The notes under the pieces are model-generated. The model had not been told where the DNA came from, ran no database searches, and was given only the letters and a program-made list of their open reading frames with translations. Of a stretch of DNA of 57,120 bases, positions 28,101 to 43,571 are shown piece after piece (position 1 is the first letter of the stretch; each line of letters begins with the position of its first letter). Origin of the DNA: Deltaproteobacteria bacterium (GTDB lineage: Bacteria; JAEEML01); NCBI GenBank assembly GCA_016283195.1, contig JAEEML010000037.1:1-57120 (forward strand). Reading direction: 5' to 3'. A program made the translations under genes and the position numbers.

Positions 28101-31100
28101 GCCGAATCTTTAAGAAAACAGGCTGAGCTTTTGCCTGATAACGAGGAGCAATTCCGCATTCATAAACGCCTGGCCGAGCTTTCGGCTGAGGAATTTAGCG
28201 ATTTTGCCGACTCTATCGAGCACTGGAAAAAGGTTATTGCCATTACTCCGAGTGACGAAGAAGCACAGCGCTCACTGGAATTTTTGCTCAATGAAGAAGA
28301 GCGCTGGGAAGAGCTGGCCGACCATTATCGCCTGCTTTTGACTTTAAAGAGCGATGAGCAGGAAAAGGCGGAAATATATAGTAAATTAGGTGTGGTTTTG
28401 GGTGAAAAACTGGGCCGCACTACCGATGCTCTCTCCTCTTGGGAAGAGGTTCTCAACACCGATCCGCATAATCTGGAAGCCCTCCGCGCCCTCATGCCGA
28501 TTTATCTCGAGCGGGCCATGTTCGACAAGTTTGAAGAAGTGGCCAAAGTGGCTATGCCGCTGGTGGAAGCCGAAGAAGCGCAAACTATCCGCTTTAATCT
28601 GGCTAAAGTCATCGGCCTGGAACTTAATCGCCCGGAAGAGGGTATTACTATGGCCAAAGATTACCTGCGCCTGGAGCAGGTAAAGGCCGACGAACTGGAA
28701 GAACTGGGCGCTGCTCTCGAAAAGATGGAAGCTTTTGCCGATGCGGCGACAGCTTATGCCAAAGCACCGGATCTTTTGGAAGGCCAGGTTGATAAGCAAG
28801 TTGAGCTCTACTTAAAAGCGGCCAATATTTGCCGCGACAAATTGGAGAGCGAGAAAAAGGCCACCGAATATCTGGAGAGTCTGCGCGAAGTTAAAGCCGA
28901 CCACAAAGAGGCTTTTGACCGCCTGCGGGCTATTTATAAAGAGACAGAACAGTGGCGTAAACTCATAGCTCTTGATGATGATTTTGTAAATTACGCTGAT
29001 AAAGAGCTCGCTTATGAGCTGCTTTCGGAAATTCGCGATATTCAGAATAATCAGCTGGCCGAAAAGGAGATGGCCTTCTTAACCGCCTGCCGGGCCTTTA
29101 AAGCGCGCCCAGATTTGCCGGAAGCCGCTGCCGCTTTGGAAGAAATTGGCGCCGCTACAGAATCTATCGAAGAGGCTGTGGCCATTATGGAGGAGGATGT
29201 TGAAAATGTGGCCGATATACCGGCCCGGGTGGAACTCCTCCGCCGCATCGCCGTTATTTATGCCGAAAAGATGGATAATATCCCCGAAGCCGAGCGGATA
29301 TTAAAAGATCTCCGAGCTATCGCACCGGAAGATCTCGATGCTCTCGATAAACTGGCTGCTCTTGCTGCCCGCGAAGAGCGCTTTGATAAAGAGCTGGAAG
29401 CTATGGAGACTAAGCTCTCCATAGTGCCGGAGCTGGAAGATAAAAAGCGCCTGCTTTATGATATTGCTCATGTTTATGAAGACAGCATAGAAGATACCGA
29501 TGGCGCTATAGCCACCTATAAACGCATTTTGGAATACGATCCCAAAGATAGAAATTCTTTGGAACAAATGCAGCGTATTTACACCGCCCAGGAATCCTGG
29601 GAAGAACTGGTGGAAACTCTCTCCAAGCTGGTGGAGCTCTCGCAGGATGTAAATGAGCTGGTGGAAATCGAGCTCCGCGTGGCCCGTATTTTGGAGAATC
29701 AGCTGGAGCGCCCGGATGACGCTATCGGCTGGTATAACGCCATTTTGGAGCTGGTACCAGGCCACAGCGAAACCCTCTCGGCTCTCGAAAATCTCTATAC
29801 CAATTTGGAGCGCTGGCGCGAGCTTGTGCAGGTATATGAGCAGGAGCTGCAAGCCACAGAAGATACCGATACCCAAGTGGCCATTATGAGCAAAGTGGCC
29901 ATCATTTATGAGACGCAGTTTGATTCTGCCCAGGATGCCGTCTATGTTTATGAGCGCATTCTCGATATTGACAGCACCAATTTAAAAGCCTTTGCCGCTA
30001 TTGAGCGCCTTTTAAGAACTATCGGCGAGTGGACAAAACTCATCTCCTTCTTAGAGCGCCACATTGCTCTACTTGACAGCAATGACGAAAAAGTGGCGAT
30101 TTACCTGCAAATTGCCGAAATTTATTACCAGGAACTCAAGCTGGTTAATAAAGCCGAAGAAACTTACAATATTGCCTATAAGATGGATTCCACCAATGCC
30201 GACGCTATCCTGGCTCTAAGCCAGCTCTATGAGCGCTCCGGTAACTGGTTTGCCGCTCTTGATATGTTGCAAAAAGGCGCCGATGTTTTGGGCAAAGATC
30301 GCAAAGCTGTGCGCCTCTTATTCCGTATGGGGCGCATTAATCAGGAGATGCTTTGGGATATGGGCACCGCCAAGAGCTGCTACTTAAAAGCTCTGGAAAT
30401 CGACGATACCCACATGGCTTCCCTGGCCGCTCTTAAAGAAATCGCCTATAGCGAAAAGGATTGGGACAATTATATTGAATACTTAATTGTCGAAGCCGAT
30501 AACGCCGACGATGATGAAGAAAAATGCGAGCTTTACTATGAAACAGCCGAATTTTTCCGCACCACCAAGATGGACGACGATCAAGCCGCTTCCTTCTATG
30601 AAAAAGCTCTGGCGGCCAATCCCGAGTATCTGCCGGCGGCCAATCAGCTGGCCGAGCTCTGCTTTAAGATGGAAAAGTGGGCCAGAGCCCGCGAACTTTA
30701 CACCCAGGCTATTAATGGCGCCGATAGTAACAAGAATAACCACGAACTTTCGCAAAAGCATTATCGCCTTGGTTATGTTTGCGCCAAACTTGATGACAAA
30801 GATGAGGCTTTGAACCATTACCAAAAAGCAGTGGAGTGCGATCCCACTTATCTGCCGGCTCTCGAAGGTCTCTCGCAGGCACTTTTAAATGCCGAAGCTT
30901 ATGAAGAGGCTATCAAAGTCTTCCAGATGATGCTCATCCACCACCGCGACAGCTTAACAGAATCGGAAGTGGTGGATATTCAATATCAAATTGGTGATCT
31001 TTACCTCAAGATCGGCCAGCTTGACCGGGCTCTTAGAGAGTTTGAAAAGTGCCTTAAAATCGATCCTGACCATCCGCAAACTCTGGAAGCTATGGCCGGT

Positions 31101-32813
31101 ATTGCTCTTAATCAGGGCAACTACGAAGAGGCTTACGGGCGTCTCAAACATTTGGTGGAAGTATTGCCCCTCCACGACCGGGTGGATATCTTCATCAAGA
31201 TGGCCGATATTGCCAAGAATAATTTGGGCGATGCGGCGCGGGCTGTTTGGGCTCTCGAAAATGCCCGCCAGATTACTCCAGAAAATGCGGCAGTTATTGA
31301 GCCGCTGGCCGGTATTTATTATGCCCAAAAACAATTGCCCCAGGCTGTTGCGCTCTATGAGCAATTGGTGAATATGCTTGGCGATGTTACCCGCCGCCGC
31401 GATTTGCACTTCCTTTTGGGCTCCCTCTATAAAGATGAGCTGAATTCGGCGCCCAAAGCCGTTTTCCACTTTAATGCCGCTCTCGATGCCGATGTGAGCT
31501 TTATCAAAGCCTTTGAAGAGATTGAGAAGGTTTTGGTGGCTTATAAACAGTGGGGCCTTTTGGAAGAGAATTACCGCCGCATGATCGAGCGTATGCCGCG
31601 TAATCTTGTGGCCGCCCGTACCTGGCTCTGGCGCAATCTCGGCGATTTGTATCGCAAAGTGCTGAATAACCTGGATGGCGCCATTATGGCTTATGAAGTG
31701 GTGACCAAGTTGAGCCCGGATACCAAAGCCGATGCCGAAGTTCTGGCCTCTCTCTATGCGCAAAAACCGGAGCACCGCAGCGAAGCTATCCGCATTCAAC
31801 ATGAAGCACTTTTAAGCGATGCCAACCCGGTGAACCATATTCGCGAGCTGCGCACTCTCTACCATGCCGACCAAAACTTTGATGCTGTTTATACCATGGC
31901 CACAGCTCTTATGGCTCTTGGCGAAGCCAATCAGGAAGAGCAGCAGATCTTCCAATATCTCTCGCAAGCCGCTTCCTTCAAAGTGGTTTCCGGCCTTTCG
32001 GAGCAAATGTGGCAGGAGCTCGTTTATCTGCCGGCTCTAAATGCGCCTATTTCCAAGCTTTCGGCGCAGCTTATGCGCATTGCCGCCGGGGAAATAACCT
32101 TTGATCTCAAAGAGCTGGGGCTCAAAAAGAACATGAAGCTCGATTTGCGCTCGGCTATGTTGCCGCAAACAGCCAATGTCTTTAAAACCACGGCGCGCCT
32201 TATGGATCTCGACAATCTTGAGTTTTATATTCGCCCGGGTGTGGCCGATGATATGCTTTTAACACCGACCAACCCGCCGTCACTTGCCATTGGCCAGTTC
32301 AATGAGATGATGACCGTTACCGATCGTCGCTTGAACTTCCACCTGGCCCGGGAGATCTTCTTTGGCAAGCCGGAATTTTATTTAGCCCGCGTCTTTAGCG
32401 GCGAAAAACTGGCCGATGTGCTCTTTGGTATTATCATGGCCGCCTCCGGCAACAGCAACATGGAGCACAATGCCAACCCGCGCGAAGTGGACCGCTGGGC
32501 CAAGCACTTTAGCAAGATCCATCAGTACCTGCGCTCCTATACCGACCTCTTGCGCCAGGTATATGCCCAGCTCATGACTCCCGGCAGCCGCGAAGAATAC
32601 CAGAAGCAGCTGGAACTTACCGCCTGCCGCGTGGGCTTTATCTTTGGCGGTTCACTGGATATCGCCATGAAGGCCCTGGAAGAAATTCATAATCCTGTGG
32701 CTAAGCTCGATTTGCGTGAGCGCCAGAAACAAATACTGCTCTATAGCTGCACTCCGGAATATCTCAAAGTGCGTCAGGCTACAGGTCTTGCTCTTAAAAT
32801 TCAAAAGAAATAG
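22170..32813 (+). CDS. Giant 3547-aa TPR protein, AgmK/GltI-like (myxobacterial gliding-associated family)
   Basis: Continuous TPR-type repeats (A..Y..L..DP....A...L..L....W..L); C-terminal TACRVGFIFGG...EYLKVRQATGL as in myxobacterial giant TPR proteins. Confidence 0.8.
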   Translation: MEQTLQELAKEIIGKTNIQAELDNFCENYLNDERYEELLQNLETLATLTAEDVAVTAAVLNKTADVALLFDLEQRAEHYYRRVVAASPDNVEALRGLRKIYQGWGDVGRAALLYEKELSLEPDEQKKLAGYLELGEIYRSQLDEPEKAEAAFGEALKIDPQNAAAISALAAVSVAGEKWELAVTYLEKELIVCGVSADLEGRIIKTLNKLAARPITHKLAEKLAESAKENGLESAEISAISTELAAEAQNWAEKTQKLAGEAMETLEQDPAKAAEDYVLIAEYIMVYGADVDAAEKWLESSLLIWPAMPRALSVLEQICLSTGRLSELAQKLEAMASSAPSSTAAAALLARAAQIYSDSLQNEEAAAATYAKLLQFDPCDQKAVTALTDYYRKNQKWNECLTTLVFAAKHAENSADKIKYFENICEILEKELGDKERAIPYYKYILSLDHHHVGAAKALEGVLRAAGDAAGLALCLTPLAQASEGAERAAYLKELIGLYEGALADHTKAVTIMTMLVREEPTAENLDKLLGDLQNDKELSIATRSLKEAIKETADEKTRIAFMLALASCYEKGDSPWAAADIYAEVLSIDPENSVAKEKAGKSETNTAGIEAVTMEHIAAATSSEEKIRALIAGAEEAKLDRPEKAVDFLNQAIALDKNNLATMDLLIDLLSRLKRLPALADILEKRCALSEGSVLAEKRRELAEVFEKLDNGKRAAAIYMDILQDNPDDAEALEALENLLKRGVEILSISKMVRPIYKAKGRYDALAEIDELLYSKVRTSQEKIELLLEIADCYDAHLSDAEKALNALFRALRLAPERSDIQAKVEATSAEAEGQGGYETLVNNYVEIARSLSPLKAQPLWLKVGEIASLRMKDLNLAATALLSAFTSTPRDEKVISAMGILFNEAGSQILLDKTAEMWAGKDSKFTKLLYKNLAKAAENGGAGTLATALWNKVRELDPEDSEVLKATERLAEASGDTAAMADNLRKKLEKATGAHRQKLVLQLADMLLEEDDKAAEVKELLDNEKGENPSKDFLARLINVSRTLDDKEALKANLSALISLQGAGAERNANIIELARLEDECGDKDGALLHIEEVLHSKDPGSEAITLLEELLLDADDEFHAKADKLLADSYAAAGRYAEAIALWEKIALATADTAAQTELYRQIAATQQNKLNDNGAAFATLIKVFNVSPKDAQLRKELETLAEASGNWEELVKAYQAALPALEGEVAATVINRRIAEILETKLGRAAEAIEYYKASGGTGGALPDDLPALQSMERLLRSQENSVDLAPVLEKMASLLPENDKKHRKEYLAESAKIYVDVMGDLNSGARLYESAMEIDPRDKEVLANLDQLYIQMADWKKLADLLTKRIEAAGISPDVVDLHLRRAKLMMDEFHDTQAALNHYKTVLVKKRNHEGAVAGLEELLPLVENKAEIAQILEPIYTSAQNNEKLAWILEVRLDLVEAPQKKSLLRRIGDIYENKLGKKAEAMSYARRAMHADPNDMGIQMWLAKLAAETENYDLLASAYVEEVENVDEKMALRFHRNAASIFHEKLQDYPAAIEEYRAIVAADPKDEKALGSMEAIFREQNNFAELALVLRKRADMTVGMERRREILSELGSIYGDKLSDGAKAIAVFKEVLAIAPDDLSAFENAERLLASGQEWDNLANFYKGEIERLATKRGVEPRTRRLELMLKRAKVLDSNLGDFDAATAILTDIFKEAPDNSAAWEYGEERITAKVATAETIALLEDIYQKESEWEKYIAILERKLQLIASQEERPAIYKEIATTILEKLGQSERAYMVLCRAFDEDRAAESVREMLEELTDKLNKYEDLAEIYADSLETLPDQDLRLKTILKLASIYDEKLKNSESAISWYEKALEAVPNDAAILANLDRLFTATEAWNKLITVLEQEIEISSESKDKVAFLLRLAEVWNNQLFEDEQALNSYKKVLELDPENIPALKATANIYEETDSYENLAESLRKQAELLPDNEEQFRIHKRLAELSAEEFSDFADSIEHWKKVIAITPSDEEAQRSLEFLLNEEERWEELADHYRLLLTLKSDEQEKAEIYSKLGVVLGEKLGRTTDALSSWEEVLNTDPHNLEALRALMPIYLERAMFDKFEEVAKVAMPLVEAEEAQTIRFNLAKVIGLELNRPEEGITMAKDYLRLEQVKADELEELGAALEKMEAFADAATAYAKAPDLLEGQVDKQVELYLKAANICRDKLESEKKATEYLESLREVKADHKEAFDRLRAIYKETEQWRKLIALDDDFVNYADKELAYELLSEIRDIQNNQLAEKEMAFLTACRAFKARPDLPEAAAALEEIGAATESIEEAVAIMEEDVENVADIPARVELLRRIAVIYAEKMDNIPEAERILKDLRAIAPEDLDALDKLAALAAREERFDKELEAMETKLSIVPELEDKKRLLYDIAHVYEDSIEDTDGAIATYKRILEYDPKDRNSLEQMQRIYTAQESWEELVETLSKLVELSQDVNELVEIELRVARILENQLERPDDAIGWYNAILELVPGHSETLSALENLYTNLERWRELVQVYEQELQATEDTDTQVAIMSKVAIIYETQFDSAQDAVYVYERILDIDSTNLKAFAAIERLLRTIGEWTKLISFLERHIALLDSNDEKVAIYLQIAEIYYQELKLVNKAEETYNIAYKMDSTNADAILALSQLYERSGNWFAALDMLQKGADVLGKDRKAVRLLFRMGRINQEMLWDMGTAKSCYLKALEIDDTHMASLAALKEIAYSEKDWDNYIEYLIVEADNADDDEEKCELYYETAEFFRTTKMDDDQAASFYEKALAANPEYLPAANQLAELCFKMEKWARARELYTQAINGADSNKNNHELSQKHYRLGYVCAKLDDKDEALNHYQKAVECDPTYLPALEGLSQALLNAEAYEEAIKVFQMMLIHHRDSLTESEVVDIQYQIGDLYLKIGQLDRALREFEKCLKIDPDHPQTLEAMAGIALNQGNYEEAYGRLKHLVEVLPLHDRVDIFIKMADIAKNNLGDAARAVWALENARQITPENAAVIEPLAGIYYAQKQLPQAVALYEQLVNMLGDVTRRRDLHFLLGSLYKDELNSAPKAVFHFNAALDADVSFIKAFEEIEKVLVAYKQWGLLEENYRRMIERMPRNLVAARTWLWRNLGDLYRKVLNNLDGAIMAYEVVTKLSPDTKADAEVLASLYAQKPEHRSEAIRIQHEALLSDANPVNHIRELRTLYHADQNFDAVYTMATALMALGEANQEEQQIFQYLSQAASFKVVSGLSEQMWQELVYLPALNAPISKLSAQLMRIAAGEITFDLKELGLKKNMKLDLRSAMLPQTANVFKTTARLMDLDNLEFYIRPGVADDMLLTPTNPPSLAIGQFNEMMTVTDRRLNFHLAREIFFGKPEFYLARVFSGEKLADVLFGIIMAASGNSNMEHNANPREVDRWAKHFSKIHQYLRSYTDLLRQVYAQLMTPGSREEYQKQLELTACRVGFIFGGSLDIAMKALEEIHNPVAKLDLRERQKQILLYSCTPEYLKVRQATGLALKIQKK

Positions 32814-35308: not shown

Positions 35309-35383
35309 TGGTGGGCGATATTGGGTTCGAACCAATGACTTCCACCGTGTGAAGATGGCACTCTTCCGCTGAGTTAATCGCCC
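35309..35383 (-). tRNA. tRNA-Val(CAC)
   Basis: Reverse complement GGGCGAT...CCATC-TTCACAC-GGTGG...GGTTCGAACC...ATCGCCC-ACCA; 75-nt cloverleaf with encoded CCA. Confidence 0.96.
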
Positions 35384-35395
35384 AAGCCGTTCGCG

Positions 35396-35424
35396 CTTTT
35401 ACAACCATAGATTTTGTTTGTCAA
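35396..35424 (-). promoter_or_regulatory. Sigma70-type promoter of tRNA-Val
   Basis: TTGACA-N17-TAAAAG just upstream of the tRNA 5' end. Confidence 0.6.
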
Positions 35425-35592
35425 GAATTTTTTCATTTAAAAAACCAAAGGCGGAAATCTTGAGTATTTTCTTGACTCCATCTGGCCGAAAGAATTAACC
35501 CCATTAGAGCGATTTTCCAATTTTTTTTAGGAATAACGCCCAAGGATTTTTTAGATTCACATATTTTGTGAAGAAAATGAGAGGAGCAAGTT

Positions 35593-36327
35593 ATGCATTA
35601 CTTAAAAAGTGTCACTCTTTTAGGTGTCCTTACTTTATTTTTGGTGGCCTGCGGCGGCGAAGAAAAAGAGGTAGCTCCCTGTTCTTGTTCTTGTCCCAAA
35701 GCTAATCCGAATAGGCCGGCATGGTGCCCGGTAGACGGTACAACGGGCACAATGATAGATGAACGCGATAATAATCGCCAATATAAAACCGTGATAATTA
35801 ATTGCCAGGAGTGGATGGCTGAGAACTATCGGCGCGAAACCGGGGTCTATTTTGTGCCGCATGGCGACGGCTTTAAAGAGCTCGATGTAGCCGTCTATGG
35901 CCTCCTTTATGCACGGAATACCGTTGTGGCTGAAGATTTCTGCCCGAGCGGCTGGCATGTGCCGAACAATGCCGAATATGAAGCTTTTTTAACTTATGTC
36001 AATAATTATAGAGGTAGTAGCGATGCCTTATTGGCTCTTATCGCCAAAAGCCCGGAATGGTTGCTCTACCCCAATAAAGGCGGTAATGATTTTGGCTTTA
36101 GCGCCATGCCGGCAGGTGCCAAGGTTGGACCTGATCTTTACATGAATGCCGGGTACCGCGCTTATATCTGGTCGACAACGACCGATGGAAAGTATGGTTA
36201 CTTTCTGCGGATTGGTGACATATCTGATGGCACAGCGGAAACCAAAGCCTCGGTGGAAGGCCGAGGCCTTTGGGAAGCTTATTCTGCGCGCTGCCTTAGA
36301 GACTCTCTGCCCCAAGCGGCAAACTGA
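35593..36327 (+). CDS. FISUMP (Fibrobacter succinogenes major paralogous) domain lipoprotein
   Basis: Lipobox LVAC; DERD..YKTVII...WMAEN, YGLLY, CPSGWHVP, FGFSAMPAG, SARCLRD. Confidence 0.9.
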   Translation: MHYLKSVTLLGVLTLFLVACGGEEKEVAPCSCSCPKANPNRPAWCPVDGTTGTMIDERDNNRQYKTVIINCQEWMAENYRRETGVYFVPHGDGFKELDVAVYGLLYARNTVVAEDFCPSGWHVPNNAEYEAFLTYVNNYRGSSDALLALIAKSPEWLLYPNKGGNDFGFSAMPAGAKVGPDLYMNAGYRAYIWSTTTDGKYGYFLRIGDISDGTAETKASVEGRGLWEAYSARCLRDSLPQAAN

Positions 36328-36453
36328 TAATTGCATCTTTAAAATACCATTTACTTTTAGCTAATTACCCGCCAACTTAGACATTATTTAAAACTAAGAT
36401 AATTTTTATCTTGCATTTTAATTTTATTGTGCTAGTTAGTGCCAAGGTCGGCA

Positions 36454-36545
36454 GGAGAGCTGGCCGAGTCCGGTTGATGGCGCTTGATTCGAAATCAAGT
36501 GTACCCTTACGGGTATCGGGGGTTCGAATCCCTCGCTCTCCGCCA
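36454..36545 (+). tRNA. tRNA-Ser(CGA)
   Basis: GGAGAGC acceptor; CTTGA-TTCGAAA-TCAAG anticodon arm; long variable arm; GGTTCGAATCC; ends GCCA. Confidence 0.96.
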
Positions 36546-36577
36546 CTTTTATTAAGTGGAGGCGCCGGCATGATTGC

Positions 36578-36670
<93 letters not shown>

Positions 36671-36928: not shown

Positions 36929-39133
36929 ATGGCTAGTAGTGAAGGGACGATGCTGGGAAAATACCTCCTTCTTAGGAAGCTGGATACCGGCGGTATGGGT
37001 GAGATTTTCCTGGCCAAACAGAGCGGCCCTGTCGGCTTTGAGAAGATGGTGGTTATCAAGCGCGTTTTGGCGCAGCACCTTGATAATCAGGACTTTGTCG
37101 AAATGTTCATGCAAGAGGCGCGTATCACCGCCCGCCTCTCTAACCCCAATATTGTTCAGGTATATGACTTTGGCCAAATCGAAGATAGTTACTATACGGC
37201 CATGGAATATATCAAGGGCAAGGGGCTTGATAACATCATAAACCGTTGCAAAAAGCTCAAAAAACACATTCATCCGGCGCATATTATCGAGATAATCTGC
37301 GGCGTTTGTTCCGGCCTCTCTTATGCCCATAATTTAAAAGACGAATACGGCGAGCCGCTACACATCATTCACCGCGATGTAAACCCGCAAAATATTATGG
37401 TTACCTATAATGGCGATATTAAAGTTATCGACTTTGGTATTGCCAAAAGTGAAGTCAACGAGAATAAGACGGAGACGGGCACTTTAAAAGGCAAATTTGT
37501 CTATATGTCGCCGGAGCAAAGCTGTGCCAAAAAGCTCGATAAAAGAAGCGATATTTTCCCTATCGGCATTTGTCTTTATCAACTTTGCGCTTACGATAAT
37601 CCCTTTGCCAAAGCCAATATCGTGCTCTCTTTGGAAGCTATCCAAAAAGAGGATCCGCCACCGCCCAGCACTATTGATCCGGAATATGCCTGTTTTGATC
37701 AAATAATTGCCAAAGCTTTGCAAAAAGAGCCGGATAACCGCTATAGCGATTGCCGGGAAATGCACGATGATTTGCAACGCCTGATGCTGAGCGGCGCTGT
37801 GCAACCGGCTCCTGAGACTCTTGGCGACTTTATGGCCGAGCTCTTTGCCAGTGATTTGCAAAAAGAAAATGAGCGCCTTAAAGAATATGCCCATATCCGG
37901 GTGCCCGAAGAGGCGGGAGCTCCGGCTGCTTCCGGATCCGGCGCCAATTACAACTTGAGCAATGCTCCGACAGTTGTCGGCGCTATGAGTCCAGGCCCGT
38001 CAAGCGGCAATATTCCTCTTACCAATCCCAATATGCCGATGAATAATATGGGCATGGGCAGTTCCGGGGCTTTGCCTTTGCAACAGCCGCCGATGGGGAC
38101 TATGCCCGGCCAACCCTGGATGCCGGGAACTCCCTATGCCCCCATGATGCCGCAGCCAACTATGGGCGGCATGAATCCATATCAGATGGGCACCTTTACC
38201 GGCGTTTATCAGGAACCGCCAAAATCTAATAAGTTAGCTGTATTTCTGGTCGTTACTATTATTTTGCTCATCGGCGCCGGCGGTGCTGCTTTTATTATTA
38301 AAATGGCCCGCGACAAAGCTTTGGGGCTTAATGGCGGCGTTTCGGCCATTACAGCTGTAAAACCCATTAAAGAAATAGCCCCTGTGGCTCAGGTGACAAC
38401 TCCGGAAGCTGTTCCCCAAAAACCGGAAACCGATAAAAAAGCCCCCGAAGCCGAAACCAAAGAGCCGGCCCAGGTGGTTAAAAACAGCGAGAACAAAAAA
38501 GAACCTGCTCCCGCTAAAGAGCTAAAAGAGCCCAAAAAAGAACCTGCTCCGGTAGTAGTGAAAAAAGAAGAACCGCAGCAGCCGAAAGTGATTATGAATA
38601 CCGCTCCTAAAGAGCAGCCCAAAGCGGAACAGCCAAAGGCCGAGCAGCCCAAAGTAGAACCGAAAAAAGAGCAACCCAAAGTGGAGCCGAAAAAAGAGCA
38701 GCCTAAAGCTGAGCCGAAAAAAGAGACTCCCAAAACTGCTCCCGTAGCTCCGCCTCCGGCAGCCGAAACACCTGCCGCGAGCGGCGGTACGCTTATTGCC
38801 GCTTCCAATCCGCCGACGCGGGTTAAATTGGATGGCGCCAAAATCGGGCAAACACCTGGGCTTAGAGCTCAGCTGAAAAAAGCCAGCGGAAAATTAGTTT
38901 TCGGCGATACATCAACGCCTTATGATGTGATTATTAATTACAGAATAAATGATGGCAAAGTAAGCTATACTGTCTCCACCGATCCGGCGAGTATTCTTAC
39001 TCTTAACGGCACAGCCAGAGGCAAGACGCCGCAAACAGTGCAATCCAGCGGAGCGCTTGACAGATTTGAATTTATGGATCCGGCCAGTGCCCAAAAAATG
39101 ACAGTTAATTTGAAAATTACCCCTGATAAATAA
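36929..39133 (+). CDS. Hanks-type Ser/Thr protein kinase with TM helix and Pro/Lys-rich extracytoplasmic region
   Basis: GGMGEIF, VVIK, HRDVNPQN, DFGIAK, YMSPEQ, SDIF; one TM helix; PKAEQ repeats; PEGA-like end. Confidence 0.93.
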   Translation: MASSEGTMLGKYLLLRKLDTGGMGEIFLAKQSGPVGFEKMVVIKRVLAQHLDNQDFVEMFMQEARITARLSNPNIVQVYDFGQIEDSYYTAMEYIKGKGLDNIINRCKKLKKHIHPAHIIEIICGVCSGLSYAHNLKDEYGEPLHIIHRDVNPQNIMVTYNGDIKVIDFGIAKSEVNENKTETGTLKGKFVYMSPEQSCAKKLDKRSDIFPIGICLYQLCAYDNPFAKANIVLSLEAIQKEDPPPPSTIDPEYACFDQIIAKALQKEPDNRYSDCREMHDDLQRLMLSGAVQPAPETLGDFMAELFASDLQKENERLKEYAHIRVPEEAGAPAASGSGANYNLSNAPTVVGAMSPGPSSGNIPLTNPNMPMNNMGMGSSGALPLQQPPMGTMPGQPWMPGTPYAPMMPQPTMGGMNPYQMGTFTGVYQEPPKSNKLAVFLVVTIILLIGAGGAAFIIKMARDKALGLNGGVSAITAVKPIKEIAPVAQVTTPEAVPQKPETDKKAPEAETKEPAQVVKNSENKKEPAPAKELKEPKKEPAPVVVKKEEPQQPKVIMNTAPKEQPKAEQPKAEQPKVEPKKEQPKVEPKKEQPKAEPKKETPKTAPVAPPPAAETPAASGGTLIAASNPPTRVKLDGAKIGQTPGLRAQLKKASGKLVFGDTSTPYDVIINYRINDGKVSYTVSTDPASILTLNGTARGKTPQTVQSSGALDRFEFMDPASAQKMTVNLKITPDK
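38606..38722 (+). repeat. Coding repeats PKAEQ / PKVEPKKEQ in the kinase linker
   Basis: 15-nt and 27-nt imperfect direct repeats. Confidence 0.75.
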
Positions 39134-39157
39134 CTTTAACAAGCAAGGAGAGAAGAG

Positions 39158-39475
39158 ATGGAATCATTTAAAATCGGTGATGCAAGGCGGCCGCAAATAG
39201 CAGCTACCCCCAGAAAAAAAGCTGGCAAAGAGCAGGAAGAAGCCGGAAAATCTCTGGGCTTTGAGCGTATTGAGAAGTTTTTGGAAGCCGATGATACCGC
39301 GGCGCAGCTGAAAGCTTTGGAAGATTCTATGGACGCTCTTAAAAAATTAGCGGCCGAAGCTGTTTCTCCGAGAGAAAAAAGCGCTGCCGAAAAAGCGCTG
39401 AAAGCCTATGTAAATACTATGGATCTTGTCCAGTTTCTCCTAAAGACCAAAGAACAAATGATGGCCGCTAAATAA
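39158..39475 (+). CDS. YscE/CdsE-like type III needle co-chaperone (putative)
   Basis: Two-helix pattern IEKFL...LEDSMDALKK...EKALKAYVNTMDLVQFL resembles YscE/CdsE; directly precedes the needle-like gene. Confidence 0.55.
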   Translation: MESFKIGDARRPQIAATPRKKAGKEQEEAGKSLGFERIEKFLEADDTAAQLKALEDSMDALKKLAAEAVSPREKSAAEKALKAYVNTMDLVQFLLKTKEQMMAAK

Positions 39476-39574
39476 TTTTTTTAACCAAAAAAAAGAGTAT
39501 CTGCGTACTTCATGCAGACGCTAAAGCTGGCGGGTGATGATGACCTGCTACAGCGATAAAATAGGAGGTCTCAA

Positions 39575-40126
39575 ATGAATATCACCAGTAACGTAAATGT
39601 TGACCGTAGTCTTGGAACCAAATTGAGCGTTGGTGCTCAACGCACTCGCCAAACCGAGAAAACCGATTTTGGTTCAAAATTGAAAGAGGGTCTCTCCAAA
39701 GTGGGCGATGTGGCTCTGCAAGCCGGTAATGTGGCTGCTCCTTTCCTGCCGGGTGGCTCGGTTGTCTCCGCCGCTATCAGCGGTGTAGCTTCTCTGAAAG
39801 ATGCTGCCGGCGGTGCCAGCTCCGGTCTCGGCCGCGTTGGCGGGGCAGTTACTTCCAACAGTGCCATGATTGGTGGCTCCGGCTCTGTCGGTGGTAGCGG
39901 CGCTGTAAGCACCGGTGCCGGTGCGGTTTCCGGTAACAGTGGCGATTCTTCTATGGCTCTTTTGCAAGCTACCCGCGAAATGCAGGAAATGAGCCAACAG
40001 TTCAATTTGCAATATTTGCAATTACAGCAAGATATGCAAAACGAGAACCGCCAATTCTCTATGGTCTCCAATATCATGAAAGTTAAACATGATACTGCCA
40101 AGACCGCTATCCAGAACGTGCGCTAA
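39575..40126 (+). CDS. SctF/YscF-like filament subunit with Gly/Ser-rich N-terminal extension (putative)
   Basis: C-terminus LQLQQDMQ...SMVSNIMKVKHDTAKTAIQNVR resembles needle subunits (PrgI-type SNTVK...IIQNFR); RBS AGGAGG; own terminator. Confidence 0.65.
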   Translation: MNITSNVNVDRSLGTKLSVGAQRTRQTEKTDFGSKLKEGLSKVGDVALQAGNVAAPFLPGGSVVSAAISGVASLKDAAGGASSGLGRVGGAVTSNSAMIGGSGSVGGSGAVSTGAGAVSGNSGDSSMALLQATREMQEMSQQFNLQYLQLQQDMQNENRQFSMVSNIMKVKHDTAKTAIQNVR

Positions 40127-40148
40127 TTAAATAATTAGCCGGCAAAAT

Positions 40149-40190
40149 AAAAAAGGGCAGCTTTTGAAAAAATAAAGCTGCCCTTTTTTT
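40149..40190 (+). terminator. Intrinsic terminator (potentially bidirectional) after the filament-like gene
   Basis: A6-GGGCAGCTTT-loop-AAAGCTGCCC-T7. Confidence 0.88.
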
Positions 40191-40248
40191 ATTAATAAGC
40201 AATTGACCGGCTGATTTTATCCGGCTAGAATTAGTTCGTTGTTTTTTC

Positions 40249-40275
40249 GCAACAATAAAAAGGGAACTCCGATAA
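40249..40275 (+). promoter_or_regulatory. Putative FliA/sigma28-type promoter GCAAC-N14-TCCGATAA
   Basis: Located after the terminator and before the TPR chaperone gene; matches the motifs at 10804 and 21476. Confidence 0.55.
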
Positions 40276-40307
40276 TAAAGGAGCCCTTAGATGAGAGGAT
40301 CGAAGGC

Positions 40308-40724
40308 ATGAGTAAAGAAGAGATGATAACCGGATTGATCGAAGTACCGCAGAAACAGGCTTCCATGCTTTTGGAGGCAGGTTATCTCCTTATGGAACTC
40401 GGTAAAAATAAAGAAGCCGAGGAGACATTCCAAGGAGTGGCTGCCCTTCTTCCGCATAGTGAAGTGCCGCACATGGCTCTTGGCCATCTCTATTTCTCCC
40501 AAGGAAAATTCAATCAGTCGCTTACAGAACACCGCGCAGCTGCCAAACTTAATGCCAATTCGGCTTTGGCTTTTGCCTCTGTCGGTGAAGTGCTGCTCTT
40601 TTTGAAAAAACCAGAACAAGCTTTAAAAGAACTGGCCAAAGCTATCGAACTCGACCCCGATGGATCGGCCGGTGAATTTGCGAAATCCCTCCGCGATGCC
40701 CAAAAACAGGGTGTTTTCGGCTAA
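40308..40724 (+). CDS. YscG/CdsG-like TPR type III chaperone (start uncertain, 40308 or 40323)
   Basis: Three TPRs; MLLEAGYLLMELGK.KEAEETFQG...LLP resembles CdsG/SycD-type chaperones. Confidence 0.65.
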   Translation: MSKEEMITGLIEVPQKQASMLLEAGYLLMELGKNKEAEETFQGVAALLPHSEVPHMALGHLYFSQGKFNQSLTEHRAAAKLNANSALAFASVGEVLLFLKKPEQALKELAKAIELDPDGSAGEFAKSLRDAQKQGVFG

Positions 40725-40742
40725 GGATTTAGTGAGGAACTT

Positions 40743-41054
40743 ATGACCGTTACCGTTAGTGGCGCTTATCGTCCGGTTGATTTTAACGTTTCCGGGCCAA
40801 TATCTCCTCAGGATAATCAGCCTGTGAGCGGAGAAATTAAAACAGCACCGCAGCAAAATGTGGAACTAAAGCCGGTGCGCGATAGTTTGGACATCAGCTT
40901 AAGAGCCGCGATAAGCACCATGTTGGCTTCGCATCCGCTGGTTAATACTCTTTCCAGTGAGGAAAGAGCAGCTCTGGTTAGCGCAGTGGAATTTTCTTTG
41001 AAACAAGGTATCGGGATCTCCTCTTTAATACGCATTATCGAACGCAGCCGCTAA
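40743..41054 (+). CDS. Hypothetical protein, 103 aa
   Basis: RBS GAGGA; disordered Ser/Pro N-terminus then helices; 18 nt after the TPR gene, so likely co-transcribed. Confidence 0.65.
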   Translation: MTVTVSGAYRPVDFNVSGPISPQDNQPVSGEIKTAPQQNVELKPVRDSLDISLRAAISTMLASHPLVNTLSSEERAALVSAVEFSLKQGIGISSLIRIIERSR

Positions 41055-41159
41055 TATTTCCCCTTAATAATATTTTTTGTGGTGAAAAGAGTGGCTGTTT
41101 GCTCCTTATGATTAGGTTTATTTGATGAGCTGCTCTGCTTTCGGCCCGCTTTTAGAGTC

Positions 41160-43571
41160 ATGAATTTTCTCATTATATCTTTGCTGTTTATGACTCTGCC
41201 CGTAGATGAAGCCTGGCCACCCTTGGCCGGCTATGACCTTGGCGCTATGGAGGGCAGCTCTTTTGGCATATTGGAAAAAGATCTGCTCCCGGCGGCGCAG
41301 GATAGCGCTTCGATTTTAGATATTTGGCTTATTCCGGCCATCTATCTCCCTTATGGCAGCGGTGGCCACTCCGAATTGGAAGATTTGCGCTACTCGGCTT
41401 ATGGGCGCAGTTTTCGCAGTAATCACACTTTTATTGAAAATATAGATGTGAGCGACCCTTTTAACGACGGTGTGCCCATGATTAGTGCGCCATGGCCGCT
41501 CTGGAGCTCTATGCGCTTTTCCGGCCTTAGAAATACTTACGGCGAGCAGCTGGGAGTAACTTATAATTTGGCGCGCCCCATTAGTCCCGGCCTTTCCGGC
41601 TCTATAGAGAGCTCGTTTATTGATGAAACCGGCGGGCCAACGCTTATTCCGCCGCATACTCTGGACGGTGAGCCGGGGACGGTGCGCGGGGCCACTCTTA
41701 AGAGAAGGGAAATAGCGCGCAATTATTATTTTGGCGGTCTGGCCCGTTATTGCGGTGAGCGATATTGCCTTTGGTTTAGCGCCGATTATCAAAAACTTGA
41801 TCGCACTTTTATCACCCATGACCATTTGGATGCTGGTGAGCGTTTGCGTCTGGCCAGCGGCTTTGAAGCGCAAAAAAGCGGCTATAAAATATCTATGCGC
41901 TTTTTATATGAAATGGCAAAGCGCCAGGATTACGGCGGGGAATATCGCCTTAGTGCTACCGATTTGGCCAGCCAAAAGGCCCATGCTTTTCATGGGCAAT
42001 TTAATCTGCGCAAAGGGCGCATGGCTTTGCAACTGGGTTATACCGAGCGCCTGGAAAATATTACTCCCCATAGCTTAGTAGAGCATTTGGAAATTAGCGA
42101 TCTTAGGGCCCAGGGCTCGCTGCTCCCCAAATACGGTGAGGCCAGTCGCGGCCTTTTTCAGCTTAATTTAAACTATCTCGGGCGGCATCATCGCTTTTAT
42201 AACACTGTGCTTATCGACGGCGTTTATTATACACCGGCCGCGCGTGAACGCCTCTATACTTATTTAGGGCAGAGTGAATGGCGGGAAACTGTTACCGGTG
42301 AGGCAAAACTTTACCATCATCGCTACCGCCTGCGTACTTGGTATAATTATAAGCGCTCTTTTAAAAAAATTAAACTTAACGGCGTATTGGGAATTTTTGC
42401 CCAGCATACTCAGGCTCAGGGGCAGGATGTGGGCTTTTCCTGGCTTTCGCCCTATGGCCGCCTTGATAGTACTTTTCTCTTTTCGCCGCGTTTTTTTATT
42501 ACTATCGCCGGCCTTACCGATGTGCCGGATTTGCCGTATCAGGCTATTTTATATGCTAATAAAGCTTTGCCTTATACTGCCCGCACATTTTGGTTTGATA
42601 ATAACGAAAACGGCCTTTTTGAGTCCGGAGAAGAGGGCGCTTTGGTGCGCCGCGGCGGAGGCGGTACCCACGCTATAAGTGAGAATTTGCGCCCGGCCAG
42701 AGAATGGGAGCTCTTTATCGGTTTTGGCGGCAAAAGCGGCAAAAAATTAAACTGGCGCTTTAATATTATCGAGCGCTTTTATACCGGCCGCTATATGGTT
42801 TTATATAGTGAAAATCAGCGCTCTCTTTTTAGCGCAACAGCCTTTAAAGACCCAATGGGCAGTGCGCGCGGGGCTAATGCCTCACTTTCCGGCAGCGGCC
42901 AGGATCTAACGGCTTTTATCAAAGAAAGTGCCCTTTGGGGCAAAGATAGTTATATTTTAGAAAATGACAGCCGTTTGTCTTTTTATCAGGGAATTGAACT
43001 GGAACTTTATAGTGCCGGCAAAGTGGGCTTTTTTCATCTTTCCGGCACAGCTTATTGGGTAGAGGGCTTTGCTCCTTATGGCAACGGGCCGGAATATAAC
43101 GATTTTATGGCTATAGACGAAGAAAGTGCCGACCCAAACTGGCAAATAAACGAAAAAGGGCGCTTTGATAGCTGCCGCGCTTTGGGGCTGAATATTTTGT
43201 GGGGCATAAAGCTCTTTGGCAGCGCCCGCTACGGCGCACTCTTTTTTGCCAGCCTCACCCGTTATCGCGATGGCGAGCCCTTTTCGCGTATTGTTGTTAA
43301 TGATACTTTGCCTCAGGGCGCTACGCCCATAATGGCCAACTGGCGGGCCGGCGCGCGCTATACTTTCCACATGAGTTCCGATTTGCGCCTCGCTTATCGC
43401 CTGCCGCTGGGGCTCACCACTTTGTGGCTTGTGGCCGATATTTATAATCTTCTCGACTCGCGTGCCGAAATAACGGAATATGCCCGCTCCGGCGGCAACT
43501 GGCGGCAGGCTATGGAAATTTTGCCGGCCCGCACTTTTATGCTCAAAGTAAAAATTAATTTTGGCGGCTAG
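41160..43571 (+). CDS. TonB-dependent receptor-like outer-membrane protein
   Basis: Plug-like GRSFRSNHTFIENIDVSDPF; beta-strand pattern; C-terminal DIYNLLD...PARTFMLKVKINF. Confidence 0.7.
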   Translation: MNFLIISLLFMTLPVDEAWPPLAGYDLGAMEGSSFGILEKDLLPAAQDSASILDIWLIPAIYLPYGSGGHSELEDLRYSAYGRSFRSNHTFIENIDVSDPFNDGVPMISAPWPLWSSMRFSGLRNTYGEQLGVTYNLARPISPGLSGSIESSFIDETGGPTLIPPHTLDGEPGTVRGATLKRREIARNYYFGGLARYCGERYCLWFSADYQKLDRTFITHDHLDAGERLRLASGFEAQKSGYKISMRFLYEMAKRQDYGGEYRLSATDLASQKAHAFHGQFNLRKGRMALQLGYTERLENITPHSLVEHLEISDLRAQGSLLPKYGEASRGLFQLNLNYLGRHHRFYNTVLIDGVYYTPAARERLYTYLGQSEWRETVTGEAKLYHHRYRLRTWYNYKRSFKKIKLNGVLGIFAQHTQAQGQDVGFSWLSPYGRLDSTFLFSPRFFITIAGLTDVPDLPYQAILYANKALPYTARTFWFDNNENGLFESGEEGALVRRGGGGTHAISENLRPAREWELFIGFGGKSGKKLNWRFNIIERFYTGRYMVLYSENQRSLFSATAFKDPMGSARGANASLSGSGQDLTAFIKESALWGKDSYILENDSRLSFYQGIELELYSAGKVGFFHLSGTAYWVEGFAPYGNGPEYNDFMAIDEESADPNWQINEKGRFDSCRALGLNILWGIKLFGSARYGALFFASLTRYRDGEPFSRIVVNDTLPQGATPIMANWRAGARYTFHMSSDLRLAYRLPLGLTTLWLVADIYNLLDSRAEITEYARSGGNWRQAMEILPARTFMLKVKINFGG

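Follow-up and report, generated by a model that had tools for sequence, protein, structure and literature searches.

The window analysed here, i.e., the whole stretch of 57,120 nucleotides, carries a row of four small genes, designated E, F, G and H, between positions 39158 and 41054. All four open reading frames described in an earlier note on this DNA are present on the + strand, and together with the upstream gene and the putative signals between them they are arranged as follows.

36929..39133, + strand: upstream gene for a Ser/Thr protein kinase of 734 aa (Pkinase, E 1.6e-37)
39158..39475, + strand: E, a small helical protein of 105 aa; a GGAG ribosome-binding site precedes the ATG
39575..40126, + strand: F, the needle-position protein of 183 aa, with an AGGAGG ribosome-binding site
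39668..39811, + strand: conserved N-terminal region of F, residues ~32-79
39812..39943, + strand: Gly/Ser-rich variable linker of F, residues ~80-123
39944..40123, + strand: C-terminal module of F, residues 124-183, a long helix ending in ...SNIMKVKHDTAKTAIQNVR
40149..40193, + strand: intrinsic-terminator-like hairpin with a U-run, read in the sequence directly 3' of F
40203..40231, + strand: sigma-70-like promoter match TTGACC-17-TAGAAT before G, agreeing with the consensus at 10/12 positions
40239..40724, + strand: G as listed (TTG start, 161 aa), or 40308..40724 from an ATG (138 aa); a three-repeat TPR protein
40743..41054, + strand: H, a lineage-restricted protein of 103 aa without a family match in Pfam or NCBIfam

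The kinase gene ends 24 nt before the start of E, and in 17 of the 48 related loci with enough flank a homologue of it lies no more than 4 kb upstream of F. We consider the Ser/Thr kinase a conserved upstream neighbour of E-F-G, possibly acting as a regulator. The hairpin after F folds at -23 kcal/mol (z -4.19), and none of 200 shuffled sequences folds equally well. Sigma-70-like sites in the region are not above the number in shuffles (3 observed versus 2.8), and for this reason the promoter-like site before G is rated as weak. The same site overlaps the TTG start listed for G, and the consensus in the 33-row alignment of G homologues (A2) comprises about 140 residues; therefore, G probably starts at the ATG at 40308, which gives 138 aa. 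The G product matches Pfam TPR families down to E 1e-10, in agreement with the three TPRs read in it before. H has only five homologues in total (60-88% identity), which are confined to close relatives, and no BLAST match to it occurs in 80 related loci; in relatives its slot is held by a non-homologous gene of about 160 aa, referred to as x.

A tRNA-Asp(atc) called by ARAGORN at 39747-39835 lies within the conserved F reading frame and was therefore taken as a false positive. RNA contigs (three libraries, two studies) span positions 39532-40054, only part of F, while within 38900-41200 none of them covers E, G or H; since these are contigs from filtered records and DNA may be present in RNA libraries, the missing cover of E, G and H proves nothing. 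The terminator-like hairpin after F and the RNA contigs over F fit, weakly, a production of F in excess over its neighbours.

The F family was represented by 184 database relatives (E<=0.01), and 29 sequences were aligned (A1). In this alignment the motif 'AAPFLPGGSVVSAAISG' is conserved, and residues F32, P59, G60, S65 and A67 are invariant. The N-terminal region is composed of two predicted helices linked by an invariant P-G-G turn ('AAPFLPGG'); the AF2 model places the helices, with low confidence, at residues 32-54 and 61-79 (mean pLDDT of F 55). Within the family, this Ala/Gly-rich, moderately hydrophobic hairpin is confined to the Myxococcota type III form, and a search of ESM Atlas with residues 1-85, restricted to named clusters, returned no usable match. 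It is followed by the Gly/Ser linker noticed earlier (residues ~80-123), which varies between sequences, is gapped in the alignment and is modelled with pLDDT below 50. The best conserved part of F is formed by its C-terminal ~55 residues, and AF2 represents the C-terminal module as a single helix of 58 residues (125-182, pLDDT ~80). One database source labels an F homologue as 'FliE'.

Gene order was compared in 80 related loci, with each count limited to the loci having enough flank. Of 52 loci, 34 have G after full-length F, and E lies ahead of it in 31 of 56; in 27 of the 39 loci that have a full-length F and 5 kb or more of downstream flank, genes for SctI-like, SctJ or SctV proteins are located downstream on the same strand, within 5-10 kb. 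Two loci (L029 and L051) have the extended order E-F-G-x-FliA-like sigma-SctI-like-SctJ-FliG-like-SctL-SctN-SctO-SctP-like-SctQ on one strand; in operons of this type SctN reaches 610 bits on TIGR02546, exceeding the cut-off, and SctO is YscO-like at 2.5e-24. Compact loci of the Anaeromyxobacter type and, in two large genomes, the second locus comprise F-SctI-like-SctJ-SctQ-SctR-T-SctV within about 9 kb, and the order F-SctI-like-SctJ was found in L053, L073, L104 and L105. A Myxococcota genome of 10.35 Mb has F-G...SctI-like-SctJ...SctV in a single cluster. The reference order on Shigella plasmid pCP301 is mxiG-mxiH-mxiI-mxiJ-mxiK-mxiN; since F in relatives directly precedes the rod and ring genes (SctI and SctJ), it occupies the position of the Shigella needle gene, as in mxiH-mxiI-mxiJ.

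The likeness extends to the YscE-F-G, PscE-F-G and EscE-F-G systems of Yersinia, Pseudomonas and E. coli, respectively, each consisting of a needle subunit and two co-chaperones, where a small helical protein, a needle-position protein and a TPR protein are likewise followed by sctI-sctJ-...-sctL-sctN-O-P-Q. In Yersinia, yscE-yscF-yscG stand ahead of the sctI and sctJ genes, and the adjacency of escF and escG was seen in the reference. The proposal that the four genes begin with a yscEFG-like order thus stands as far as the order itself is concerned, because this order recurs and heads a type III secretion operon in relatives, while the E, F and G proteins miss the family thresholds.

The earlier statement that the window has no export-apparatus genes proved right, and so did the orphan state of the module in its host genome: the genes for SctV, SctJ, SctR and an SctI-like protein are all on other contigs (C83, C141, C58 and C153, respectively). 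They form the groups sctV, sctJ-sctL, sctP-sctR, and a sigma factor gene with an adjoining sctI-like gene. In all, the type III system of the host occupies five or more separate places. Its SctV scores 835.8 bits on TIGR01399 (cut-off 692); no flagellin was found in this genome, which has a non-flagellar T3SS, and no secretin was found linked to the T3SS. The description of E-F-G as a separately encoded module is true of the host genome but not of most relatives, where T3SS genes lie downstream (27/39 loci). E-F-G is a conserved module and a detached piece of the T3SS.

These data bear directly on the suggestion that the four small genes are unrelated, came together by coincidence and have no joint function. 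The window has no type III gene nearby and H is not conserved past close relatives, which speaks for this suggestion; however, the order E-F-G recurs in dozens of distant loci, and this synteny already contradicts it. The linkage of the module with T3SS operons and the predicted G-F binding, obtained with clean controls (see below), also speak against coincidence, which we regard as hardly credible.

Co-occurrence across the Myxococcota, proposed before as a check, was counted by hand in 301 genomes, a phylum sample centred on the genome of locus L053. F is present in 253 of them, 250 with SctV and three without it; among the genomes lacking F, SctV is present in 18 and absent from 30. Thus F accompanies SctV in 250 of 268 SctV-positive genomes versus 3 of 33 SctV-negative ones. 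One of the genomes with both proteins (G241) is unpublished, and large genomes have two F copies together with two sctV genes.

The position of F suggests the needle subunit SctF, and F had been read as an extended needle-like protein; its membership in the SctF family is not demonstrable. The Pfam family PF09392 (T3SS_needle_F, curated cut-off 29.4 bits) gives no match with F at E<=1 and matches only one of its 29 relatives, at E 0.097; no NCBIfam family matches F, and none of the 29 relatives is assigned to a T3SS or flagellar family there. Foldseek of the F model, itself of low confidence, returned no PDB matches, and the F-family profile found no needle protein among PDB sequences at E<=10, with chance matches only (E>=0.4). 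In hhalign, the C-terminal module of F gives an end-anchored, weak and non-significant match with MxiH (E 0.0073, probability 5.3%), restricted to the last ~20-30 residues with the pattern SN..K...D.....I.N.R-end. The accepted SctI-like family of Myxococcota compares with MxiI in the same way (E 0.0076, 5.1%), i.e., no better than F does with MxiH, which is why this test has little power at such a distance. For the C-terminal module of F against EscF, EspA, EscI and the Myxococcota SctI-like family, the probabilities are 0.5%, 0.5%, 0.1% and 0.3%, respectively.

The module is homologous to paralogues in the same genome (hhalign 97.4%). One of these, on contig C94, matches PF09392 at 22-26 bits (25.8 in a genome scan in which it was the sole match), below the cut-off of 29.4, and the same paralogue matches MxiH at 10 of its last 19 residues; tblastn of the paralogue's C-terminal module against plasmids gave no match. 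Leads from ESM Atlas include a Myxococcota cluster in which 11% of the members bear PF09392, and also HrpA pilin. F differs in structure from known needles: these are small helix-turn-helix proteins of about 70-90 aa (MxiH 83 aa, EscF 73 aa), whereas F has 183 aa and, in the AF2 model, a single long C-terminal helix, lacks the P-x-x-P turn of the MxiH/PrgI type, and possesses the additional N-terminal hairpin and Gly/Ser linker that are absent from YscF and EscF. Moreover, the module of F, unlike MxiH/PrgI-type needles, occurs also in organisms without type III secretion.

The failure to find a needle signature in F is in line with another possibility, namely that F is not polymerised and represents a T3SS-associated plug, gatekeeper, ruler-like or regulatory substrate having G as its chaperone. 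For example, F might be an anti-sigma-like export substrate coupling assembly to the FliA-like sigma factor of the same operon: in relatives a FliA/WhiG-like sigma gene is found after G and before the SctI-like gene, in the host genome it is beside the sctI-like gene, and the long disordered linker of F would suit such a role. However, no sigma factor was detected between F and SctI-SctJ in the compact loci, and a regulatory role does not account for the fact that the C-terminal helix is so extremely conserved, even where the organism has neither the sigma factor nor any T3SS. We consider this explanation improbable.

Turning to the partners of F, the homologues of E share the motifs 'SFKIGD' and 'GFxRIExxLE' and a C-terminal helix (25-row alignment A3). 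No Pfam family was found for E, and none of the 25 homologues matches a YscE/PscE co-chaperone family (Pfam T3SS_needle_E) at E<=1. E shares with YscE only its place in the order and its character as a small helical protein. The AF2 model of G has seven helices (pLDDT 90.9). The best NCBIfam match of G is LcrH_SycD (TIGR02552; E 1e-10, 41.4 bits versus a cut-off of 104.8), followed by SctY (1.5e-4, 22.2 bits, cut-off 70) and CdsG (2.6e-4, 21.2 bits, cut-off 170). Its nearest natural neighbours in Foldseek, among TPR proteins, are IpgC, PcrH and SycD, while PscG and YscG are both absent from the top 50 matches, and the G profile finds only generic TPR matches among PDB sequences. G therefore does not come out as the YscG that was expected: it is a regular three-TPR protein and looks closer to the SycD/LcrH/IpgC chaperones of translocators.

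The complex of G, E and residues 118-183 of F was predicted with an ipSAE of 0.84 (runs 0.74, 0.84 and 0.88), and the best of three controls scored 0.00. Of 80 solved complexes, 58 reach the mark used for this score, as do 2 of 110 mismatched pairs; these counts are only a rough guide to E-F-G, for which own alignments and three chains were used. The good score of the complex may be due to chaperone complexes with solved structures that the model has memorised. Partner pLDDT does not fall below 68, and at least 61% of the contacts are common to the runs. F residues 139-183 are placed against G residues 28-159, i.e., the C-terminal helix of F is predicted to sit in the TPR groove of G, and E touches F at only three residues. 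The idea that E and G chaperone F is thus favoured for G by the prediction, and for E it is weakened by the paucity of contacts; E may nevertheless act as a co-chaperone.

The likeness of G to translocator chaperones, together with the moderately hydrophobic hairpin of F, leads to the alternative that F is exported by the type III route as an effector or translocator-like protein and has no structural role. The C-terminal module would then be the active part, e.g., membrane-active or lytic, leaving other bacteria via Sec or peptidase-ABC exporters, while the Myxococcota N-terminal domain and the class II-like chaperone G would make it fit for the type III route. F could even be the factor behind the prey lysis for which the T3SS* of M. 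xanthus is required, according to the available text of PMC12075869.

The distribution of the module outside the Myxococcota is in favour of a portable exported domain. At E<=0.001 the module is carried by 2807 cluster representatives, and its mean column identity is 67% over 28 sequences from several phyla. It stands at the extreme C-terminus in 149 of the 150 best module-bearing representatives, of which only seven have the Myxococcota N-domain motif and 57 have a hydrophobic, signal-like N-terminus; further proteins with the module have GG-type or Nif11 leaders. The FHIPEP protein is absent from four of the five module-carrier genomes tested outside Myxococcota. Among the neighbours of module-only genes in the non-Myxococcota loci there is no common family, as seen with an ORF filter that is crude for high-GC DNA. 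Some Myxococcota copies are further from the consensus than the non-Myxococcota ones.

For F itself, several features disagree with the effector role. Every T3SS locus, whether long or compact, has its own F fixed before sctI-sctJ, and F tracks SctV through 250 of 268 genomes, which suits a part of the machine more than an effector. The predicted G contact is with the C-terminal helix of F, while class II chaperones grip an N-terminal peptide of translocators. As read from its sequence, the module is polar, neutral and heptad-like, in contrast to typical membrane-active peptides. F is also far shorter than YopB/D, IpaB/C and PopB/D, no gene of translocator size adjoins G in the window (its neighbour F has 183 aa), and F sits at the needle slot, in a way that distinguishes the locus from translocator operons. 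An effector role for F seems to us rather unlikely, given this evidence.

The same distribution may be interpreted more broadly: the module could represent a portable self-assembling axial helix used also outside T3SS, with Sec or double-glycine ABC export, in many phyla and some archaea. We think this doubtful. Two origins would fit it. Old extracellular peptides forming helical polymers could have given rise to the needle-position subunit of Myxococcota, or the copies of other organisms could mimic, cap or poison the type III filament of a predator. Were this interpretation true, the T3SS called 'needle-less' would possess a needle-like component after all, one of a novel kind. The occurrence of the module in organisms without T3SS points to uncharacterised exported helical domains in at least 2807 cluster representatives.

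The reading we develop here is that F is a chaperoned axial substrate of the T3SS in the needle position, and we give it an even chance of being correct. E-F-G would be the head of a Myxococcota-type operon for type III secretion, detached from the rest, with F as the substrate in the SctF slot, immediately ahead of sctI (inner rod) and sctJ (ring). The concave TPR groove of G is predicted to grip the C-terminal helix of F in the cytoplasm and may thereby block the self-association of F, with E presumably acting beside G as a co-chaperone. F would then be exported through the SctRSTUV gate and attached to the SctI rod as an axial component, perhaps in the form of a short needle, stub or cap, and its N-terminal helical hairpin and Gly/Ser linker would be exposed on the outside of the axial structure.

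Such a scheme has parallels among axial proteins held at their C-terminal helices by chaperones, including PscF with PscG, flagellin with FliS, FlgK with FlgN, and the EspA filament protein with CesAB. The predicted G-F contact resembles that of PscG with PscF. As in flagellar axial proteins and EspA, the terminal helices of F are conserved, its middle is variable and a chaperone is predicted at the C-terminal helix, and the surrounding operon keeps FliO-like, FliG-like and FliA-like sigma genes; however, F matches no flagellar family and has no similarity to EspA.

Among the closest known systems are the T3SS* and T3SS(2) of M. xanthus (mxan_2434-2464 and MXAN_5643-5654), the operon content and order of which match the long and compact F loci. 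The literature on these systems, in its available portions, lists SctD, J, I, Q, RSTUV, N, L and LcrH-like chaperones in M. xanthus (PMC10433427) and distinguishes long and short T3SS variants (PMC3459982). The 'needle-less' description of the myxobacterial T3SS, cited in the earlier note, is real (PMC3459982, PMC12075869, PMC10849154, PMC10433427, in the portions available), so that the idea of a missing part is reasonable; the same portions state that there is no needle homologue, and the F family is unmentioned in them. A further difference from the M. xanthus T3SS* is the host genome's own system, dispersed as described above.

The myxobacterial T3SS is held to be the earliest-branching non-flagellar T3SS, in which the needle gene has been lost. 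This opinion underlies a scenario for the origin of injectisomes as well as the model of predation by a contact-dependent 'needle-less' T3SS* acting with a Tad pilus. The F family calls the premise of needle loss into question: it is conserved, predicted to be chaperoned, and located at the needle position in both long and compact loci, in 250 of 268 SctV-bearing genomes.

We consider it very probable that the E-F-G module, formed by three of four small neighbouring ORFs in the window, is a type III component. ORF calling recovered, at the expected positions, each of the four + strand ORFs that the earlier note had claimed at 39158..41054:

39158-39475, + strand: E, ORF of 105 aa
39575-40126, + strand: F, ORF of 183 aa, the needle-position protein
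40239-40724, + strand: G, ORF of 161 aa counted from a TTG start
40743-41054, + strand: H, ORF of 103 aa

Ribosome-binding sites are clear for E and F, and a Ser/Thr kinase gene ends 24 nt upstream of E. Directly 3' of F lies a strong, terminator-like hairpin (-23 kcal/mol, z -4.19; equalled by 0 of 200 shuffles), followed by a promoter-like site at 40203-40231. Because of this site and the ~140-residue consensus of G (33-row alignment), the ATG at 40308 is the likelier G start, which would give 138 aa. Pfam and NCBIfam assign E, F and H to no family and G to the TPR proteins; among NCBIfam models, LcrH_SycD scores best for G (1e-10, 41 bits vs a cut-off of 104.8), with SctY and CdsG next, and none of the three reaches its cut-off. 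A tRNA-Asp (anticodon ATC) called by ARAGORN at 39747-39835, inside the Gly/Ser-coding part of F, is almost certainly false. Upstream of the module, a single ORF of 3547 aa occupies 22170-32813, and 35309-36670 holds a minus-strand tRNA-Val(cac) and, shortly before the kinase gene, two adjoining tRNA-Ser genes with long arms (cga, gga).

Database searching gave 184 relatives of F at E<=0.01, some 70 of them full length, and those that are named belong to Myxococcota, including Anaeromyxobacter and Archangium. Their 29-row alignment has four parts: 'RQTxxTDFG' is conserved, the P-G-G turn in 'AAPFIPGGAVLSAAISG' is invariant, the Gly/Ser linker varies, and the C-terminal ~55 residues form a very conserved module (the F C-module). 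Full-length F was present in 57 of the 80 loci fetched from species genomes. Among loci with enough flank on the relevant side, G directly follows F in 34/52, E directly precedes it in 31/56, a kinase gene lies within 4 kb upstream in 17/48, and a SctI-like, SctJ or SctV gene is found downstream on the same strand in 27/39. H has only five close homologues, and neither H nor the following gene is conserved among the 80 loci; the latter, an ORF of 803 aa that comes straight after the module (41160-43571) and matches no Pfam or NCBIfam family, has a counterpart in none of them.

The operon of one relative (L029) consists of E, F, G, a 162-aa gene, a FliA-like sigma factor, SctI-like (PF17001 match below cut-off), SctJ, FliG-like, SctL, SctN (TIGR02546, 610 bits, above cut-off), SctO (YscO-like, 2.5e-24), SctP-like, SctQ and FliO-like genes. 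The same long cluster, extending to SctV, occurs in a 10.35-Mb genome, and in compact loci F, SctI-like, SctJ, SctQ, SctR, T and SctV lie within ~9 kb; the F that heads these is that of Anaeromyxobacter-type loci or the second copy in each of two large genomes. The order F-SctI-like-SctJ is that of Shigella mxiH-mxiI-mxiJ; therefore, the needle position is taken by F, and the rod gene next to it belongs to a different family.

The genome that carries the window (contig C65) is assembled to 3.22 Mb in 190 contigs with 47.8% G+C, and the best named relatives of the central part of its RpoB are Myxococcota (77-79% identity). Its type III system is non-flagellar, and a search of the genome found no flagellin. 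The type III genes, which form one operon in relatives, are here dispersed over five or more places, among unrelated neighbours: the module on C65; SctV on C83 (TIGR01399, 835.8 bits, above the 692 cut-off), adjoining murB; SctJ, a FliG-like gene and SctL on C141, with UDP-glucose dehydrogenase beside sctJ; SctP-like, SctQ, FliO-like and SctR genes on C58; and a FliA-like sigma factor with a SctI-like gene on C153. The absence of export-apparatus genes from the window, claimed earlier, stands, as the 16 kb of C65 to each side of the module are free of type III genes and SctV and SctR are on C83 and C58. Because its partners are scattered over other contigs, E-F-G is a true orphan in this genome. 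The FliG-like gene (L013:3156-4205 on C141; L029:5741-6886 in the relative) takes the usual sctK place between sctJ and sctL and matches FliG_C (31.6 bits, above cut-off) as well as FliG_M; the operon that bears it also retains a FliO-like gene and a FliA-like sigma factor. Abby and Rocha 2012 (PMC3459982) count FliG among the proteins missing from Myxococcales systems.

The sampled 301 genomes represent Myxococcota, the phylum of Anaeromyxobacter soli (L053), and carry F in 253 and SctV in 268 cases. Counted by hand from the two genome lists, F was accompanied by SctV in 250 genomes and lacked it in 3, while among genomes without F, 18 had SctV and 30 did not. The co-occurrence with the export apparatus proposed for examination in the earlier note is thus borne out, with F in 250/268 SctV-positive vs 3/33 SctV-negative genomes (249/267 without one unpublished genome, G241). 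Because related genomes are non-independent and many assemblies are incomplete, these counts show a strong association and do not amount to a statistical test. FHIPEP was found in all five tested genomes with full-length F.

By sequence or fold, F is not demonstrably a needle protein: PF09392 misses F and matches one of 29 relatives (E 0.097). HrpF matches 2/29 relatives and HrpA 1/29, all weakly; a PDB profile search with the F family, Foldseek of F, and comparison of the F C-module with EscF, EspA and EscI returned nothing. By every threshold tested, F falls outside the SctF family. In the AF2 model the C-terminal part of F is one 58-residue helix, and confidence is low for the N-terminal half. 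In hhalign, the last 32 columns of the F C-module align weakly onto the MxiH end (E 0.0073, probability 5.3%), a distance at which this test cannot see, the Myxococcota SctI-like family scoring 5.1% against MxiI.

Seven paralogues in the same genome (78 to 619 aa, one of them, of 78 aa, needle-sized) have very different N-terminal parts and C-termini homologous to the F C-module (hhalign 97.4%, E 1.2e-11), with a common module of ~45 residues, IGDDAQL.N.DLQ..LQKQQ...SN.SK.L.DTA.A.IRKIG. They include genes at L010:1573-5120 (C13), L011:2120-7051 (C130) and L015:3973-4779 (C94). The 268-aa paralogue on C94 reaches 22-26 bits with PF09392 and has 10 of its last 19 residues in common with MxiH; the resulting chain of likeness from the F C-module through the paralogues to MxiH may be taken as a weak positive. 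A 546-aa paralogue (L010:3480-5120) contains DUF1521 (PF07481, 40.3 bits, above cut-off), the domain by which rhizobial type III effectors, NopE among them, cleave themselves when induced by metal. The seven could serve as additional substrates, whether axial, tip-like or effector-carrying.

The F C-module is not confined to type III systems. Its profile finds 2807 cluster representatives at E<=0.001 (1392 at E<=1e-10); among the best 150, with protein lengths of 55-386 aa, it forms the extreme C-terminus in 149, the Myxococcota N-domain is present in only 7, and a hydrophobic signal-like N-terminus in 57. Carriers include Acidobacteriota, Aminicenantes, Chloroflexia, Armatimonadota, Gemmatimonadota and three archaeal assemblies, with 58-68% identity to the window's module, and FHIPEP is absent from four of five tested non-Myxococcota carrier genomes. 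Some module-bearing proteins have Nif11 or classical double-glycine leaders, the former ending in GG in P0082 (138 aa, PF07862) and the latter in P0156 (92 aa), which suggests that other bacteria export them through peptidase-containing ABC transporters. The strongest argument against F as purely a needle comes from this distribution, which feeds the improbable notion of a portable self-assembling axial helix and also the alternative that F is an exported effector-like protein, which we regard as rather unlikely. The other alternative, that F is a non-polymerising regulator or plug, we judge decidedly improbable.

Chaperoning of F was modelled with G and E as alignments and F residues 118-183 as partner. 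The score was 0.84 (runs 0.74, 0.84, 0.88), with 0.00 for the best of three controls; this mark was reached by 58/80 solved complexes and 2/110 mismatched pairs, counts that are only a rough guide here because our own alignments and three chains were used. The TPR groove of G (residues 28-159) accommodates F residues 139-183 (partner pLDDT at least 68; at least 61% of contacts common to runs). The proposed EFG complex is thus predicted for its G-F part, while E touches F at three residues only. The model supports binding of the F C-terminal helix region by G, and the pass could reflect model memory of solved chaperone complexes. The G fold (pLDDT 90.9) matches designed TPRs first, the leading natural type III proteins being IpgC (rank 8), PcrH (rank 14) and SycD (rank 23); PscG and YscG are not in the top 50.

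Metagenomes and metatranscriptomes from the gut of sheep and cattle contain DNA near-identical to 38900-41200; therefore, this Myxococcota-affiliated organism or its close kin lives in the ruminant gut. Contigs of three RNA libraries from two studies fall on 39532-40054, over F, which is compatible with transcription of F and no proof of it.

The myxobacterial predation system is indeed published as needle-less, as the earlier note held: Abby and Rocha 2012 (PMC3459982) report Myxococcales systems without SctF, which 'should have been found', and the T3SS* is termed needle-less by Herrou et al. 2025 (PMC12075869) and by reviews of 2024 (PMC10849154) and 2023 (PMC10433427), the latter of which names SctI and LcrH-like chaperones among the components. 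Our literature search for SctF in Myxococcota returned nothing beyond Abby and Rocha 2012. The most likely reading, of which we are about half convinced, is that F is a G-chaperoned substrate at the needle position, which would add to the SctI rod.
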